Origin: Carcharhinus longimanus
Taxonomy: Eukaryota
DNA: 64,000 nucleotides
Assembly (NCBI GenBank): GCA_030264375.1
Contig: JASCQW010000081.1
Span: 40,264,246 to 40,328,245 of the forward strand
Direction: 5' to 3'
Both the position numbers and the translations under genes were made by a program. Shown here one piece after another: positions 2,111-62,190 of the stretch. A model generated the notes under the pieces. The model made no database searches. It was not told the DNA's origin and saw only the letters and a program-made list of their open reading frames with translations. Each line of letters begins with the position of its first letter. Position 1 is the first letter of the stretch.

Positions 2111-2405
2111 AAGTTTATTTATTGTGTCATAAGTAGGCTTACATTAACACTGCAACGAAATTACTGTGAAAATCCCTGCGTCGCCACACTCCGGCACCTG
2201 TTCAGGTACACAGAGGGAGAATTTAGCATGGCCAATGCACCTAACCAGCACGTCTTTCGGACTGTAGGAGGAAAACGGAGCACCCAGAGGAAACCCATGC
2301 AGATGTGGGGAGAATGTACAGACTCCACAAAGACAATGACCCAAGCCAGGAATTGAACCTGGGTCCCTGGCACTGTGAGGCAGATGTGCTAACCACTGTG
2401 CCACC
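2111..2405 (-). mobile_element. HE1-type V-SINE, tail type A (non-CR1 tail)
   Basis: The reverse strand has A box ggtggcacagtggttagc, B box ggttcaattcc, V-domain core gggtttcctctgggtgctccgttttcctcc, and tail ttttcacagta...tacttatgacacaataaataaac. Confidence 0.92.
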
Positions 2406-4561: not shown

Positions 4562-6287
4562 AAACAATGAAGCCACTGTGACTGACACTGTTCCAGTTCA
4601 GGTTTACAAGGCTGGAGGTCAATATCTGGATAAGAATATCACTGAAATTCTCAGATAAATGTGGGAGCAAGGAACGATCCCACAATAATACAAATATGCT
4701 TCCATAAACTGCCTGTACAAGCAGAAAGTACCTCACAAATCTTGTGACAATCATAGGGGAATCTCACTCCTCTCCATCACTAGTGAGATCTTAGCCAGAG
4801 TCCTTATAAATCACTTAGTGCAATATCTCAACCAGGGTCTGCTGCCAGATAATTGGTGCAGTTTCAGAAAAGGTCAAGGAACCACTGATACAATGTCTGC
4901 AGTTAGACAGCTATAGAAGAAAATGCCAAAAACAGAACATGGGCTCTTAATCACATTTGTTGGCCTGCTGAAGGCATTTGACACAGTCAACCATGAGGGC
5001 CTTAGGTAACAGAGAAATTTGGCTGCTGAGAAATTTATCACAATGGTTCGGCAATTACAAGCACGCTCACGTCCTGGATGTTGGTGAGTCTTCTGACCTA
5101 GTCTAGCGCTAATCCTCTTCAGCAAGTTTTTACTCTGACCTGCTCATTGTTGCCTACCATGATGGCAATCCTGACATTATAATCAGATATCGCTTGGATG
5201 GGATGCGTCTCAGTCTGAGACAACCCCAGGCAGAGACTAAGATCTCCAAGACAGACTTTGCAATTTCCTGTTTGCCAGTGATGGTGCACCAACTTCCAGT
5301 TCAGAGCTGGACATGCAGTGTAGCATGAACCTATTCACCAACACCTGACAAACTTCAGCCTTACAATCAACACAAAGAAAACTGAAATAATGTACCAGCC
5401 TAATGTACTAGGGAAAAGCCCTGATTCAAGTTCAAGATTTCAATCCATGATCAGAACTTGTCAGCAGTAGATTAGAATCATAGAATCCCTACTGTGCATT
5501 AGCTCACTGATCTTGACAGCACGCTCTCTTGAGCTGTCAATATTGACGAGGAGACACATGCAAGAATTGCCAAAGCAAGCGTAGCCTTCATAAGATTTTC
5601 AACAACAGTCTGCGAACGAGTAAGAGTAAATTTGCCTTCCAAACTGAAAGGCTGTACAGCAATAATCCTAGTCCTGCCCACTCTGCATGTGAGACTTGAA
5701 CTGTGTACCAGCATTATGCCACAATGCCACATAGCTCAACTAGTTTCACTAAAACTGCTTTTGAAAGCTTCCAAAGATCCATCAGCAAGACAAAATGCCA
5801 GGTGCTCACCCGGGCAGGCATGCCAAGCATGCACGCCATATTGAGATAGTCACAACTGAGTTGGGCTAGGCATGTAGTCAGAAACCTAACAGTTGCTTAC
5901 CAAAGTGAATCTTCTTTGCAGAGTTTGAGTGTGGGGACTATTCTCATGGCGCTCGGAGGAAATGCTACCAGGACATTCTGAAACTTCACCTGGAATTTTG
6001 ATATTAACTTTTGAATCCTGGGAGAAGCACGCCCAGGTATGCTGCACCGGACACAACCAAATAAAAAATGGTGCAGCCTCCTTCAAAAACAAATGCAAAT
6101 TAGAGGCTCAGAGAAAACACTGGAAGAGGAAATTCCAAGCCAGTAACTCATCCAAAATTCAATCGCCTGCAGTCTCTTGAGCTATTTGCAGCAGAGCCTT
6201 CCAGGTACAAATGGGCCGTAACAGTTGCCTACATACCCACCAGAACCCTACCATACACATCAGATGATGAACATGGTGATCTTCACC
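4562..6287 (+). mobile_element. RTE-clade LINE, 5'-truncated and decayed
   Basis: SCDNHRGISLLSI (4740-4778), TFVGLLKAFDTVN (4953-4991), FLFASDGA (decayed FADD, about 5265-5288), AVNIDEETHARIAKASVAF (about 5533-5590), a QSQLRWAGHV-like stretch at about 5845-5877, and a decayed C-terminal zinc-finger region at about 6180-6240. Confidence 0.9.
5473..5498 (-). mobile_element. 26-bp HE1/CR1 3'-tail micro-insertion inside the RTE
   Basis: tagaatcatagaatccctactgtgca is the reverse complement of the tail ending the SINEs at 42288 and 46829. It is flanked by ATTAG at 5471-5475 and 5498-5502. Confidence 0.75.
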
Positions 6288-12564: not shown

Positions 12565-12654
12565 GGGCAGCATGGTGGACAAGATGCTCTTTTGGAGAGT
12601 CAGTGCAGACTCAATGGGCTGAATGGCCTCCTTCTGCACTGTAGGGGTTCTATG
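12565..12654 (+). mobile_element. HE1 SINE remnant (CR1-type tail with a short head-like stub)
   Basis: gggcagcatggtggac followed directly by the tail ...gtgcagactcaatgggctgaatggcctccttctgcactgtaggggttctatg. Confidence 0.7.
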
Positions 12655-13404
12655 CTTTTAAAATATTGGCCAGGATTTAAAATAATGAAAATCTGAGCAG
12701 AGAACTTAACAGTGTCTCAATTGTGCCAAATTGAAAGATTGAGAGCTGCATTGTTTAAGCTCAGTTTTTAGTTCATCCTTTCAAGAGTGTTAAAGTGATT
12801 TCTACACAAAGAATGGAACATAAATTGCGCCCCAAAAATTTAGTCTGTTCTTAGTTGCAGGTGGTATACTCCTATCCTACAGAACATCAATAGACGATAC
12901 AAAATGTTCTGAAAACTGGGAGGTAACCATTAAGGTCAGAGATCTTCTGGCATGGAGAATGTGACAGCTCAGTAAGATGGCTGACAATATACATCTTTCA
13001 CAGAAAACAGAAACAGTTGAATAAAAGTACTGTAAATCATAACTCAGCTTATATCTCAGTCTAAACTGTTTAAAGTTTGATGCTCCATTGAAGAGGAGGA
13101 GTGTTTGAAACTCTTATCAACTTAAAAAAAAATTCACACTGGAATGATTAAAAGACATTTTTCTGAGCTATCATATGTCCCTTGGTTTATTGCCAGCCCT
13201 AGTATTTCACAAAATGAACAACCGAATCACTATTTCTTCATAAACTAATCCCCAAGTAACTTTTAATCCCCTTTTAATTACAAACCTTAGCAATTTGATT
13301 ACCTGTCTTGGCTTTAACAAAGGCAGTCGTCAGATAAGAATTTACTGTCTCTATAGCAATATTACTTTTTTTTTTACAACCAACTGATTCAATAACTACA
13401 TCTG

Positions 13405-13643
13405 ATAGAATCACAGACTCCCTGTGGTGCAGGAGGAAGCCATTTGGCCATCGAGCCTGCACTGACAACGATCCCAAACAGGGCCTATCCCTGTAGCCTC
13501 GAGCATTTACCCTACTATTCTCCCTGACATAAGGGGCAATTTGGCATAGCCAATCCGCCTAACACACATATCTATGGACTGTGGGAGGAAATCAGAGCAC
13601 CCAGCGGAAACCACCTATGCAGACATGGGGAGGACAGGCAAAT
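13405..13643 (-). mobile_element. HE1-type V-SINE, tail type B (CR1/HER1 tail), 5'-truncated
   Basis: The reverse strand has core ggtttccgctgggtgctctgatttcctcccacagtcc and tail gatggccaaatggcttcctcctgcaccacagggagtctgtgattctat. Confidence 0.88.
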
Positions 13644-16370: not shown

Positions 16371-16877
16371 AATTTGATTTGATTTATTTTTGTCACATGT
16401 ATTAGCCTACAGTGAAAAGTATTGTTTCTTGCGTGCTATACAGACAAAGCATACCATTCATAGGGAAGGAAATGAGAGAGTGCAGAATGTAGTGTTACAG
16501 TTCTCGTTAGGGTGAGAGAAAGTTCAACTTAATGCAAGGTAGGTCCATTCAAAAGCCCGTTGGCAGCAGGGAAGAAGCTGTTCTTGTGTCAGTTGGTACG
16601 TGACCTCAGACTTTTGTATCCTTTTCCCAACAGAAGAAGGTGGAAGAGAGAATGTTCGGGGTGTGTGTGGTCCTTAATTATGCTGGCTGCTTTGTTGAGA
16701 CAGCGGATAGTGTAGACAGAGTCAATGGATGGGAGGCTGGTTTACATGAAGGATTGGGCTACATTCACAACCTTTTGTAGTTTCTTGCAGTCTTGGGCAG
16801 AGCAGAGCTATACCAAGTTGTGATACAACCAGAAAGAATGCTTTCTATGGTGCATCTGTAAAAGTTGGTGAGGGTCA
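16371..16877 (-). mobile_element. Rex1/Babar LINE 3' fragment
   Basis: Minus-strand translation TLTNFYRCTIESILSGCITTWY...KAASIIKDHTHPEHSLFHLLLLGKGYKSLRSRTN*HKNSFFPAA is typical of the Rex1 ORF C-terminus. The 3' end is ttttcactgtaggctaatacatgtgacaaaaataaatcaaatcaaa. Confidence 0.92.
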
Positions 16878-21051: not shown

Positions 21052-21955
21052 CCCAAGTTTGCAGATAAGCCAAAAACAGATGGGAAGGCAAGTGCTGTGG
21101 ATGCCACAGAGTCTACAGAAGGATATAAATAAAGTGAGTGAGCAAAAACGTGCCAGATGGAAAATAATGTAGGAAAATGTGAAGTTATGAACTTTGGTGG
21201 AAAGAATAAAGGAGTTGAATTTAAATAGAGAAAGACGGCAGAAAGCTGCGGCACAAAGGGATTTGGGGGTCCTCGTGCATAGATCTCAGCAAGCTAGCAT
21301 GCAAGTTTAGCAGGTAATAGGGAGGACAAATGTAATGTTGACCTTTATTTCAAAGGAAATGGGGTATAAAAATAGGACAATTTTGCTAAAACTTTAGATC
21401 ACACCTGAAATACTGTGAACAGTTTTGATCCCCAGATGTAAGAGGACATTTCATAGCATCTGAGAGAATCCAGAGAAGGTTCACCAGGTTGATCTCGGGT
21501 ATGGAAGGATTTTCTTACGAGGGAAGGTTGAGTAGGATGGGTTTGTACATACTGGAGTTTAGAAGAATGAGAGATAACTTTGAGATATATAAGATATTCA
21601 GCAGGCTTGATAGGGTAGAAGCTGAGAGGTTGTTTTCCCTGTGGGAGGACCAGTGGGCATAATCTCAGGGTAAAGAGTCACCCAATTAAGCTACAGGTGA
21701 GGAAGAATTTCTTCTCTGAAAGGGTAGTGAATCTGTGGAATTCTTTACCACAGAGGTCTGCAGGGTCTGGAACATTCAGTATATTCAAAGCTGAGATAGA
21801 CAGATTTTTAATCAGTAAGGGAATCAAGTGTTATGGGGATATGGTGGGAAAGTAGGATTGAGGATTATCGTGTCAGACCAGTCATGATCTCATTAAATAG
21901 TGGAGCAGACTTGATGGACCAAATAGACTACTTCTGCTCCTAATCTTATATTCTT
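21052..21955 (+). mobile_element. CR1/HER1 LINE 3' fragment
   Basis: KFAD, SLQKDI, GKCEVMNFGGKN, QRDLGVLVH, IQRRFTRLISG and RKNFFSERVVNLWNSLPQ, plus a 3' UTR ending ctacttctgctcctaatcttat. Confidence 0.93.
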
Positions 21956-29314: not shown

Positions 29315-29557
29315 GGGCAGCACGGTGGCACAGTGGTAAGCACTGCTGCCTCATAGCGCCAGGGACCTGTATTCGATTCCGGCTTATGCAGAGTCTGCAC
29401 ATTCTCCTCGTGTCTGTATGGGTTTCTTCCTGGTGCTCCGGTTTCCTTCCACAGTCTGAAAGACGTGCTGGTTAGGTGCACTGGCCACGCTAAATTCTCC
29501 CTCAGTGTACCCAAACAGGCAGAGTGTGGCAACTATCTGTGACACCAGTAAATAAAC
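29315..29557 (+). mobile_element. HE1-type V-SINE, tail type A, with an internal deletion in the tail
   Basis: gggcagcacggtggcacagtggtaagcactgctgcctca...aaattctccctcagtgtacccaaacaggc...tgtgacaccagtaaataaac. Confidence 0.92.
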
Positions 29558-31499
29558 GTAGAACTTTAATTTAAGTAGCCCAAAATACGAGTCAGGGATC
29601 ATCCTACCTTTTTCTTGGAAAGGGTTTACCTTAGAAAAAAATTACTGAACACATTACAGCTTCTTTGCTGAGACTGCTATCAATCTCCAATAGGAGCAGT
29701 CATCTTGGAAGAATTACCAGGAAATGACACTAAGTGTTACACTGAAGGCTAGATTTGAAAATAACTCTGGGGCACAGATGCAGTCTGCTTTTCATATACT
29801 GATTAAGCCTGACATACGTTGAGAATGTTTTTAAAACCTTCACAGATGTTAAAGTTTCTCTTGTCTTATAAATAGCTATGGTCAACTGATACCAATATGG
29901 TTCTGAGCGCTACAATTTCCAGTAAAATACCACTGCTGCTACCTGGCCTCCAAAGATAAAACATATTGATGGGGTGCAGGTACTGATTTTAAAGATTAGT
30001 TTGATGGATTTTAAGGATAAATTGATACAATTATGCATCCAAAACCTGAGAAATGGTTTAAGTGAAAACACAAAGAATAAAGGAAACATCAACTGCAATG
30101 AAAGACAGCCTATGACATATGGATCAGGTAATTGCTCCTTGAAGCTATAAAAACTGTAATGCTGCTCCTCAGAGAACAATAGTTGATACAGACCAACCAA
30201 CTATTAACAGTGAAGATTAGTTTGTGGAAGTATTACTTCACAGGACAGCCTGACTGGGGTTTAGCATTCAAAAAGGCTGAACATATTTTGCAGCAGACTT
30301 TTCCCATCATAATGAATGCTTTTTAAACACTTGTCAAAAGCCTGTACCATTTATACTCTTGCAATGCAGCAATAATCAACACTTACGTAAGGAATATGTC
30401 TTCAACAGCAGCCAGTACGATAGGGAGTTGCACAATTAAACCCCACCAAAAAAAAAACTCAGTGAATGATAATCTGGCCACACTAAATTAAAATCAACCA
30501 TGGGAATTAAGAAATGAAGTCTGGTTATGCTCTTCTATCATGAATCTTGACAGTTTACTTCTTGACATTAGGATTGGTTTGTCATCCCCACACTTGCCCA
30601 ATTTGTGCAAATAATATGACAAACTAAGCAAAAATCTTTGCTCATGTCTGATTTAAACCAGTACTATCAGTGTTTCTCACTGCTTTCTAACATTGCAACA
30701 TGAAGCAAATTCTGTAATGGATTGGGATCTCTGGCTTGCAGCCTTGTTGATAGATTTTAAGGACTCTAGTATTCACACCTCACTCTTCGTTGCCCCATCT
30801 AGTAGTATTGCACTGGAGTATTTTAACTTGCAATTAAAAATAATGTAACTGTTTAGTTTTTAAGCTAAATCTCCAGATTTAAATTTTTTTCTTTGAAAAA
30901 CCTGGTGTTTCAGTCCAAAATTCTGACTTACTACTTTATACAATTTCTTAAAATGCTGTAACATTTTGTCTTTCACTCATTGCTGTGCATTTTTTAACAA
31001 ATTTGTTCATCTTACCTTTAGGTATAAGTGATAATGTAATAATCGTGTCAAAATTTCTCTCAACAATATTCGTAGACCAATGCTTACCACTTCTGTTGGA
31101 TCTTTCTCTGCTCCTAATTTTAACAGAGGATTTAACGCATTTATTTGATACATTAATTTGTTTTTGAGCAGCTGCCCACTGACATAACCTGTCATCCTCT
31201 CTTTGGTTTAAATTTTTATTCACTATCTTGTTGTAGCTGGCCACCAGACTCTCTGTTCCTCTATTGGAATTCCAGCTAATCCCACAGCTTCCTATTCTCT
31301 CTGCTATTTCTCTGGTCTCTCTTTACATCACTCATCTCTTTTCATGCTTTGTTACCTTACACAAAGTCAGAAAGTAACGCTTGGGTGTGGGCTCAAGTCT
31401 TCCATGAGCAAGATGATTTAGGAAAATGTTTATAATGCACTAGATACACCAGATGAAAGGAAATACTTCAAAACTTCACAGAATTCCACTCGACTCCAG

Positions 31500-42287: not shown

Positions 42288-42604
42288 CAGCACAGCGGCA
42301 CAATGATTAACACTGCTGTCTCACAGCGTCAGGGACCCGGGTTCGATTCCAGCTTCGGGTGACTGTCTAAGCAGAGTCTGCACATTCTCCCCATATCTGC
42401 ACGGGGTTTCCTCTGAATGCTCCAGTTTCCTCCCACACTCCAGAGATCTGTAGGGTAGGTTGCTACGCTAAATTATCCCTTAGTGTCAGGGGAATTAGCA
42501 GGGTAAATACATGGGGTTACAGGGGGTAGGATCTGGGTGAGATTGTTGTTAGTGCTGGCATGATGAACCGAATAGCCTCCTTCTGCACTGTAGGGATTCT
42601 ACAA
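42288..42604 (+). mobile_element. HE1-type V-SINE, tail type B (CR1/HER1 tail)
   Basis: B box GTTCGATTCC at 42341-42350, V core, and tail gaatagcctccttctgcactgtagggattcta. Confidence 0.92.
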
Positions 42605-46828: not shown

Positions 46829-47140
46829 TGGGGCAGCACAGTGGCACAGGAGTTAGCATGGCTGCCTCACAGCACCAGGGACCCAGGTTGGATTCCCAGC
46901 TTGAGTCACCGTTGTGTGGCGTTTACATATTCTCTGCATGGGTTTCCTCCAGGTGCTCCAGTTTCCTCCCACAGTCGAAAGATGTGTGGATTAGCCATGC
47001 TAAATTGCCCCTTAGTATCAGGGGGACTAGTTAGGGTAAATGCATAGGGTTATGGGGATAGGGCCTGGGTGAGACTGTGATCGGTGCAAACTCAATGGGC
47101 CAAATGGCCTCCTTCTGCACCTTAGGATTCTATGATTCTA
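46829..47140 (+). mobile_element. HE1-type V-SINE, tail type B, full length
   Basis: gggcagcacagtggcacagg...gggtttcctccaggtgctccagtttcctcccacagtc...aatggcctccttctgcaccttaggattctatgattcta. Confidence 0.93.
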
Positions 47141-50967: not shown

Positions 50968-51267
50968 TAAAGTTTATTTATTAGTGTCGTAAGTAGGCTT
51001 ACATTAACACTGCAATGAAGTTACTATGAAAATCCCCTCATCACCACACTCCGGTGCCTGTTCGGGTACACTGAGGGAGAATTTAGCATGGCCAACGCAC
51101 CAAACCAGTATGTCTTTCAGGCTGTGGGAGGAACCCGAAGCATGCAAAGGAAACCCACACAGACTCGTGGAGAATGTGCAGACTCCGCACAGACAGTGAC
51201 CCAAGCCGGGAATCAAACCCAGGTCCCTGGCACTGTGAGGCAGCAGTGCTAACTCACCGTGCTGCCC
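50968..51267 (-). mobile_element. HE1-type V-SINE, tail type A, full length
   Basis: Reverse strand gggcagcacggtgagttagcactgctgcc...ggggattttcatagtaacttcattgcagtgttaatgtaagcctacttacgacactaataaataaacttt. It probably sits in an older MITE starting gggctgaatttt at 50702. Confidence 0.93.
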
Positions 51268-61434: not shown

Positions 61435-62190
61435 CCATAGGATGAAGAAACAGAAGTAAGCAATTCAGCCCAATGAGTTTGCTCAGCCAATGAGATCATG
61501 ACTGATTTGATATAATCCTCAACTCCACTTTCCCACCATATCCCCATAACATTTGATTCTCTCACTGATCAAAACGTGTTTATCTCAGCCTTGATTATAC
61601 TTAATGACCCAGGCTCTGCATCCCTCTGCAGTAAAGAGGTCCACAGATTCGCTACCCTCAGAGAAGAAATTCCTCCTCATTTCTGTCTCAAATGGGTGAC
61701 CCTTTACCCTGAGATTATGCCCTCTGGTCCTAGACTCGTCCACAAGGGGAGAAAACCTTGCAGCATCTACTCTGTCTAAGCTCCCAAAAATCCCAGAAGT
61801 CTCAATAAACTCCAATGAGAACAAACTACTTAACAACTTCTCAGAAGAAAATCCCTCCATAGTGGGGTCAACCTAATGAACCTTCTGTGGACAGCCTCCA
61901 ATGCCAGTACCACTTTCCTTGGATAAGGGGGCCAAAACTGTCCACAGTATTACAGGTGTGGTCTAACAAGTGCCTTGTTTAGCTTTAACAAGACTTCCCT
62001 ACTTTTGTACTCCATTCCCTTTGAAATAAAGGCCAATGTTCCATTTGTTTTCCCAATTACTGGCTGGACTTGCATGCTAGCTTTTGTGATTTATCCACAA
62101 GGACCCCCAAATCCTTCTGTGCTGCAGCTTTCTGCAGTCTTTCTCCCTTTAAATAATAATCAACTATATTCTGCCAACCAAAGCACACCC
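61435..62190 (-). mobile_element. CR1/HER1 LINE 3' fragment, similar to 21052-21955
   Basis: ORF text DYYLKGERLQKAAAQKDLGVLV and LDRVDAARFSPLVDESRTRGHNLRVKGHPFETEMRRNFFS. Confidence 0.94.

Follow-up and report, generated by a model that had tools for sequence, protein, structure and literature searches.

A V-SINE subfamily of Carcharhinus longimanus with a Rex1-like 3′ tail

V-SINE copies and a Rex1 fragment in the window

The window, a stretch of 64,000 nucleotides from Carcharhinus longimanus (assembly GCA_030264375.1, contig JASCQW010000081.1, positions 40,264,246 to 40,328,245 of the forward strand), holds six V-SINE copies and a fragment of a Rex1 LINE, located as follows.

2111..2405, minus strand: full-length type-A V-SINE copy, 90% identical to the family consensus
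2349..2405, minus strand: tRNA-like head, with an A-box-like motif at 2388-2405 and a B-box-like motif at 2349-2359, by inspection
2208..2325 (approximate bounds), minus strand: V-domain body common to types A and B, which part right after it
2173..2207, minus strand: type-A-specific linker, matching neither Rex1 nor the type-B tail
2162..2172, minus strand: left arm of the Rex1-like stem, 10 of 11 bases identical to the Rex1 consensus
2136..2161, minus strand: 26-nt insert replacing the 6-nt Rex1 loop, with a predicted inner hairpin; 10 nt in a mobile subfamily
2125..2135, minus strand: right arm of the Rex1-like stem; the family consensus equals Rex1 at 10 of 11 bases and this copy has one further change
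2111..2124, minus strand: AATAAA and TAAACTT-type terminal repeat, where Rex1 instead ends in ATCAA repeats
50970..51262, minus strand: second full type-A copy, in which both arms, the 26-nt insert and AATAAA are present
29317..29558, plus strand: type-A copy with the left arm and insert deleted and the type-A linker present
16372..16877, minus strand: 5′-truncated, broken Rex1 LINE copy, with the end of the ORF, 3′ UTR, stem-loop (16372-16418) and ATCAA repeats
42288..42601, plus strand: type-B V-SINE with a CR1-like tail
46833..47139, plus strand: type-B V-SINE with a CR1-like tail
13407..13635, minus strand: type-B V-SINE without a head

The six V-SINE copies share the head and/or the V core and diverge just past the V core, which bears out the claim of an earlier note on this DNA that two tail types sit on one SINE. 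Its account of the single copies stands in part. The type-A tail that it described is present at 2111-2405 and 50970-51262, two of the three copies it named, but not at 29317-29558, while type B stands on the same head and V core at 42288 and 46833, the copy at 13407-13635 having no head. On the V-SINE head, Rfam gave a weak tRNA-like match alone, under the gathering score, and the A-box and B-box labels follow what we take to be the box consensus. The Rex1 copy at 16372..16877 is 92% identical to the consensus of its family. Elsewhere in the window, isolated pieces matching the type-B/CR1 tail lie at 5474-5498 and 12599-12657, and a 700-bp repeat occurs in two inverted copies, at 21192-21894 and 61489-62183, which share 73% identity.

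Abundance was estimated from 80 stretches of 10 kb at blind positions on large scaffolds (800 kb, of which 687 kb are non-N), a random sample of 0.03% of the genome. Here, 170 of 189 SINE-body matches reach the end of the V domain and divide into 64 type A, 87 type B and 19 unassigned copies. The same 687 kb contain 30 Rex1 3′ ends and 89 type-A tails, 70 of them with a SINE body upstream and the others truncated or beside gaps, so that type A has the interspersed, high-copy and 5′-truncated distribution of a V-SINE. Extrapolated from this sample, the genome would carry ~300,000 copies of type A and ~100,000 of Rex1. The V domain of the type-A consensus is identical at 59 of 64 bases, aligned by hand, to that of the “Racla” SINE given in the supplement of PMC5804259; from its name alone, we read “Racla” as R. 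clamitans, whose V domain is listed in the text of that paper (PMC5804259). Sequence near-identical to type A is present in sequencing runs under ten organism labels. Of the 20 matching rows, 8 carry a mark as a possible source of this DNA. In three runs, under three organism labels without that mark, ~80,000 contigs per run match the type-A tail region with an identical ending, and type A is therefore common to several species labels.

Further variants were seen among the loci. Type-A copies at L067, L229, L294 and L309 apparently share a deletion of ~25-30 nt at the end of the V domain, which suggests another subfamily, and a longer type-B subtype, in which the 3′ part of the V domain is duplicated, occurs in the random sample (e.g. 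L112, L128, L157). At L004:1220-1591, the 3′ part of type A comes directly after a type-B SINE. The resulting tandem of two tails may reflect chance adjacency or tail capture. A locus at L161:9911-10000 (minus strand) holds an FGxGT-type motif followed by a splice donor, and presumably resembles a T-cell receptor J segment.

The Rex1 LINE and the source of the type-A tail

The LINE consensus extended from the window copy spans the end of the APE (endonuclease) domain, the RT and the C-terminus, and PF09004, which we take to be associated with Rex1, is located after the RT. The Rex1/Babar clade is described as having a conserved 3′ UTR followed by an oligonucleotide repeat (PMC6274825), and both are present in this LINE. 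A locus of the dominant family shares 32 of 44 residues, aligned by hand, with the visible 5′ part of RhiTyp_Rex1-1 (PMC13343379 supplement); the comparison with this and the other elasmobranch Rex1 consensuses of that supplement covers their 5′ 400 bases, in the homologous endonuclease region, and not their 3′ ends. Judged by sequence, the LINE partner is a member of the Rex1/Babar clade and is homologous to the named whale-shark Rex1.

The dominant family makes up 143 of the 146 Rex1 C-terminal matches in host loci, many of these loci having been selected with that family. The other three rows (two places) come from a second, rare family on host scaffolds (L073/L188 and L023), the tail of which has none of the arms of the Rex1-like stem; in the copy at L073/L188 the hairpin is longer and the repeat is of TTGAA type. 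The five chromosomal Rex1 regions inspected contain no intact Rex1 ORF, and long “open frames” on chromosomes were rejected as ORFs, being assembly gaps. Intact LINE ORFs of 800-1250 aa do occur on small unplaced contigs (L181, L182, L183, L195, L190, L191). In a database search, one of these was 92-95% identical to two proteins, one labelled Nile tilapia, and because of this identity the small-contig ORFs were rejected as host evidence. They possibly entered the assembly as non-host DNA, or the host by recent horizontal transfer.

The arms of the type-A consensus are TTTTCACAGTA / TACTTGTGACA and those of the Rex1 consensus are TTTTCACTGTA / TACATGTGACA. Each 11-base arm agrees at 10 of 11 positions, so that 20 of 22 arm bases and the AATAAA are common to type A and Rex1, and the single difference per arm falls on paired positions of the predicted stem, where U-A is replaced by A-U. 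The arm differences are thus compensatory and the stem is conserved in the consensus. The covariation that the earlier note proposed to test for is seen as one compensatory pair between the type-A and Rex1 consensuses, but not among SINE copies, where the Rex1 base occupies both arms in 2 of the first 100 (of 586) left-arm carriers, similar to the background of 2 of 75.

Two kinds of scan of the sample led back to Rex1. A search for the two SINE arms with loops of 3-40 nt between them (800 kb, 687 kb non-N) gave 61 matches, made up of 50 type-A SINEs and 11 Rex1 ends, with no other element type among them and no match in any of 3 shuffles. In a motif-free alignment scan with type A masked, the top match was a missed type-A fragment and the next six were Rex1 ends, all six exceeding 31.8, the highest score of a shuffled query; outside the SINEs, Rex1 gives the best match of the sample, ahead of any other LINE. 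The pairwise score of the type-A and Rex1 consensus tails is 36.2, which was reached by 0 of 20,000 shuffles, while the type-A and type-B tails score against each other at shuffle level. Against three CR1-type ends, type A scores 12-24 and type B 35-46, the type-B tail sharing 27-28 of 33 bases with two of these ends. The CR1 label of these LINEs follows a C-terminal motif that we presume to be diagnostic, and one CR1 seed was left out of the tail comparison as it had converged on a type-B SINE subtype. A 3′ tail shared with a CR1-type LINE, the trait of the HE1 family, is therefore found in type B alone and not in type A.

The stretch common to type A and Rex1 is short, consisting of the two arms and the AATAAA, and the 47-nt linker before the arms has no match in Rex1 or in the type-B tail. 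Part of the 26-nt insert resembles a duplicated left arm and TGTTAA loop of the dominant Rex1 (P about 0.01, post hoc). Duplicated stem arms or loops were also observed in the Rex1 copies at L235, L248, L254, L257 and others, consistent with slippage at the hairpin during copying.

Kimura distances, computed without CpG sites, are 0.090 for type A (IQR 0.078-0.108, n=89), 0.107 for Rex1 (0.086-0.134, n=41) and 0.142 for type B (n=92), the type-B and Rex1 values being inflated by several subtypes each. The type-A and Rex1 medians differ (p=0.01) and their ranges overlap. For the head and body alone, the distances are 0.102 for type A and 0.122 for type B (p=1e-5). Ages for single Rex1 loop types were left out, as 5 and 4 copies passed the filter. 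Nesting goes both ways: of 20 inspected loci, 7 have Rex1 nested in type A and 1 has type A nested in Rex1, and further cases comprise 3 of type A inside Rex1 and 1 of Rex1 inside type A. Overlapping divergence and mutual nesting therefore place type-A and Rex1 activity in overlapping periods. Type B is probably ancestral to type A, because it is older and because the HE1-HER1 pairing is listed in PMC3747384.

In essence, the best non-SINE match, the compensatory arm differences, the overlapping ages and the mutual nesting make it well supported that the type-A tail originates from a Rex1 3′ end, and the proposal of the earlier note that a V-SINE lineage acquired a Rex1-type tail is upheld to this extent. 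A rare, better-matching LINE could still be the donor of the tail, since the sample covers 0.03% of the genome.

Predicted folds and loop variation

The earlier note had drawn the same bulged stem in the SINE and in Rex1, and this depends on what is folded. The stem is predicted in the window Rex1 end (z -1.7), with a probability of about 1.0 in Rex1 and of 0.9 in the SINE consensus tail folded alone, but neither the window copies 2111-2405 and 50970-51262 nor the full-length main type-A consensus are predicted to adopt it at minimum energy; in that consensus, its probability is 0.03 and another fold is favoured by 3.8 kcal/mol. The extra inner stem that the note saw in the SINE loop is recovered as a predicted hairpin in the 26-nt insert.

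Column variation was read from 67 Rex1 tails that were not selected on the stem. Differences amount to 93/1048 in the stem, 65/905 upstream and 85/259 in the first four loop columns, so the stem columns differ at the background (upstream) level and the loop is far more variable. Four loop types recur among these tails. The sequence of the window Rex1 end (16372-16418, minus strand) is as the earlier note gave it, but its GGCTAA loop is a minority form, present in 1 of the 67.

Loop variation in the SINE includes a type-A subfamily with a 10-nt loop, of which there are at least 97 copies (e.g. G000:C27:75042599; L318-L347). Thirty of its loci were inspected, two being neighbouring duplicates, and 29 were readable; all 29 carry a linked 2-nt deletion, which lies outside the search pattern and is present in 28 of 75 main-family copies. 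As the deletion is common to all readable short-loop loci, the subfamily arose once and amplified without the inner hairpin. In its full-length consensus, the Rex1-like stem is predicted with a probability of about 0.9. From the loop variants that amplified, we infer that loops of 6, 10 or 26 nt are tolerated.

A 3′ bulged stem-loop followed by a short repeat, as in type A and Rex1, is also described for the stringent L2 tails ZfL2-1, ZfL2-2 and UnaL2 (PMC4176376, PMC1636434). In L2 elements tested in cells, however, the loop is the specificity element and loop swaps abolish mobility (PMC4176376), whereas here the Rex1 loop varies, the SINE loop measures 10-26 nt and the SINE and LINE repeats differ. 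Since loop swaps abolish mobility in those L2 elements, a SINE loop of 26 nt would need another mode of recognition. The literature searched yielded no work on the choice of template RNA by Rex1, which is reported to be the CR1-group LINE most often transferred horizontally (PMC13343379). Type A and its variants would provide a natural mutational scan of this recognition, predicting that the stem and bulge matter and that the loop and repeat do not.

Proposed mobilisation by Rex1 and known V-SINE partners

Type A is an abundant V-SINE subfamily whose last ~60 bases probably come from the 3′ end of the dominant Rex1 and which is probably copied by the Rex1 RT. Under this model, a CR1-tailed V-SINE ancestor would have exchanged its tail for the last bases of a Rex1 RNA, probably by template switching, and would then have gained the insert and a new terminal repeat. 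In the Pol III transcript, AATAAA and the short repeat would come after a bulged 8-bp stem. This stem and its bulge, not the loop, would be the binding site of the Rex1 protein, with reverse transcription primed at the repeat.

Two features of a stringent SINE/LINE pair, a shared 3′-terminal sequence and overlapping activity, are present. A third, the same terminal repeat, is absent, as type A ends in TAAACTT-type and Rex1 in ATCAA repeats, and the terminal-repeat comparison that the earlier note had proposed gave no shared signature. A Rex1 stem-loop joined to the SINE ending occurs at 0 places genome-wide, and a Rex1 subfamily bearing that ending was accordingly rejected as a candidate. Target-site duplications, which the note had also put forward for comparison, do not discriminate, since those of at least 7 nt are not above chance in type A (5/67, 2.3 expected), type B (3/52) or Rex1 (6/104). 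Junctions of a Rex1 end with a SINE tail number 22 for type A and 7 for type B genome-wide. Chimeras of a Rex1 end and a truncated type A (2 early cases) were rejected as evidence for a shared enzyme, because 22:7 fits the motif abundance of 31:12 and 7 of 20 inspected are Rex1 inserted inside the SINE; the Rex1-type A junctions were retained for dating.

The donor and mobiliser could instead be a Rex1 family other than the dominant one, rare or extinct, whose hairpin was longer and which ended in TAAACTT; we consider this unlikely. Such a family would account for the mismatch of the terminal repeats and for the lack of any SINE subfamily with fully Rex1-like arms; the second host family and Rex1-like elements of the small contigs do show longer hairpins before TGACAATAAA, and the catshark, skate and sawfish labels each list several Rex1 families (PMC13343379 supplement). 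However, none of the 89 type-A tails has a LINE bearing such a tail upstream, by inspection, the arms are absent from the tail of the second family, and the dominant family predominates among the C-terminal matches, subject to the selection of loci noted above. The likeness of part of the insert to the dominant-family left arm and loop, post hoc as it is, also points to the dominant family, in whose copies such duplications occur.

Rex1 could also have supplied the tail of a SINE that has since come to be moved by another LINE, be it CR1, Zenon, L2 or a relaxed L1/Tx1, which would act on its A-rich end or on an alternative fold. The enlarged loop, the changed terminal repeat, the alternative folds predicted and the absence of chimera enrichment agree with such an escape, and CR1-type LINEs are abundant, with some copies equally young. 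Against it, both arms are kept in all amplified variants seen while the insert is dispensable, and type A has neither a poly(A) tail nor, in any of 67 copies, a target-site duplication of 9 nt or more, which argues against L1/Tx1 and RTE, with their long duplications; we regard this escape as quite improbable. Convergence or chance between AT-rich hairpin ends is very improbable and already largely refuted by the motif scan and the 20,000 shuffles, for although the comparison was picked post hoc and concerns a short, AT-rich stretch, Rex1 was the sole element recovered in 687 kb, the order, spacing and terminal position are the same and the arm differences are compensatory.

With mobilisation by dominant-family Rex1 as the preferred reading, type A can be set beside known systems. 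The HE1 V-SINE and HER1 LINE are listed as a pair in sharks and rays (PMC3747384 table). Like HE1, the SINE described here has a tRNA head and a V domain in a shark-like genome, and type B has a CR1-like tail; unlike HE1, which is known here by description, type A carries Rex1-like arms and no CR1-like tail. No match to an HE1 sequence was obtained in the literature supplements searched, one file excepted. The same table lists SINE2-5_NV of the sea anemone Nematostella with Rex1-24_NV, also a tRNA SINE with a Rex1 partner; compared by this listing alone, it differs in being non-vertebrate and in not being labelled a V-SINE (PMC3747384). Bivalve V-SINEs are described with CR1, CR1-Zenon or Nimb tails (PMC4824008, PMC11481361) and a Xenopus V-SINE is listed with L2 (PMC3747384 table). 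In these, as here, the body is kept and a LINE-derived tail is exchanged, with the difference that both tails occur here at high copy in one genome. The main texts of PMC4824008 and PMC11481361, both on bivalves, contain no instance of “Rex”, and “SINE” occurs once in that of PMC13343379.

A Rex1 tail is described for no V-SINE and for no shark SINE in the literature searched, namely the available parts of PMC3747384, PMC4824008, PMC11481361, PMC6887750, PMC5804259, PMC5786205, PMC3531059, PMC5135761, PMC6274825, PMC4176376, PMC13343379 and PMC5499810; the original HE1/V-SINE papers, Repbase, Dfam and SINEBase lie outside this scope and may already contain the family. Tail switching and changes of V-SINE partner are already known, and the V-SINE/Rex1 pairing would be a new variant of this phenomenon, in which Rex1 joins the known partners of V-SINEs. 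More tentatively, this may be an undescribed partnership that ranks with the most abundant repeats in several species of shark, and in whose variants Rex1 recognises the bulged stem alone. Loops of 6 to 26 bases and a divergent repeat would then be tolerated, in contrast to the loop-specific L2 enzymes. The LINE RSg-1 may, we presume, be related to Rex1. Salmon SINEs are paired with it in PMC3747384. Filing every V-SINE as CR1-dependent HE1 would mis-annotate about 4 in 10 assignable copies of the sample (64/151).
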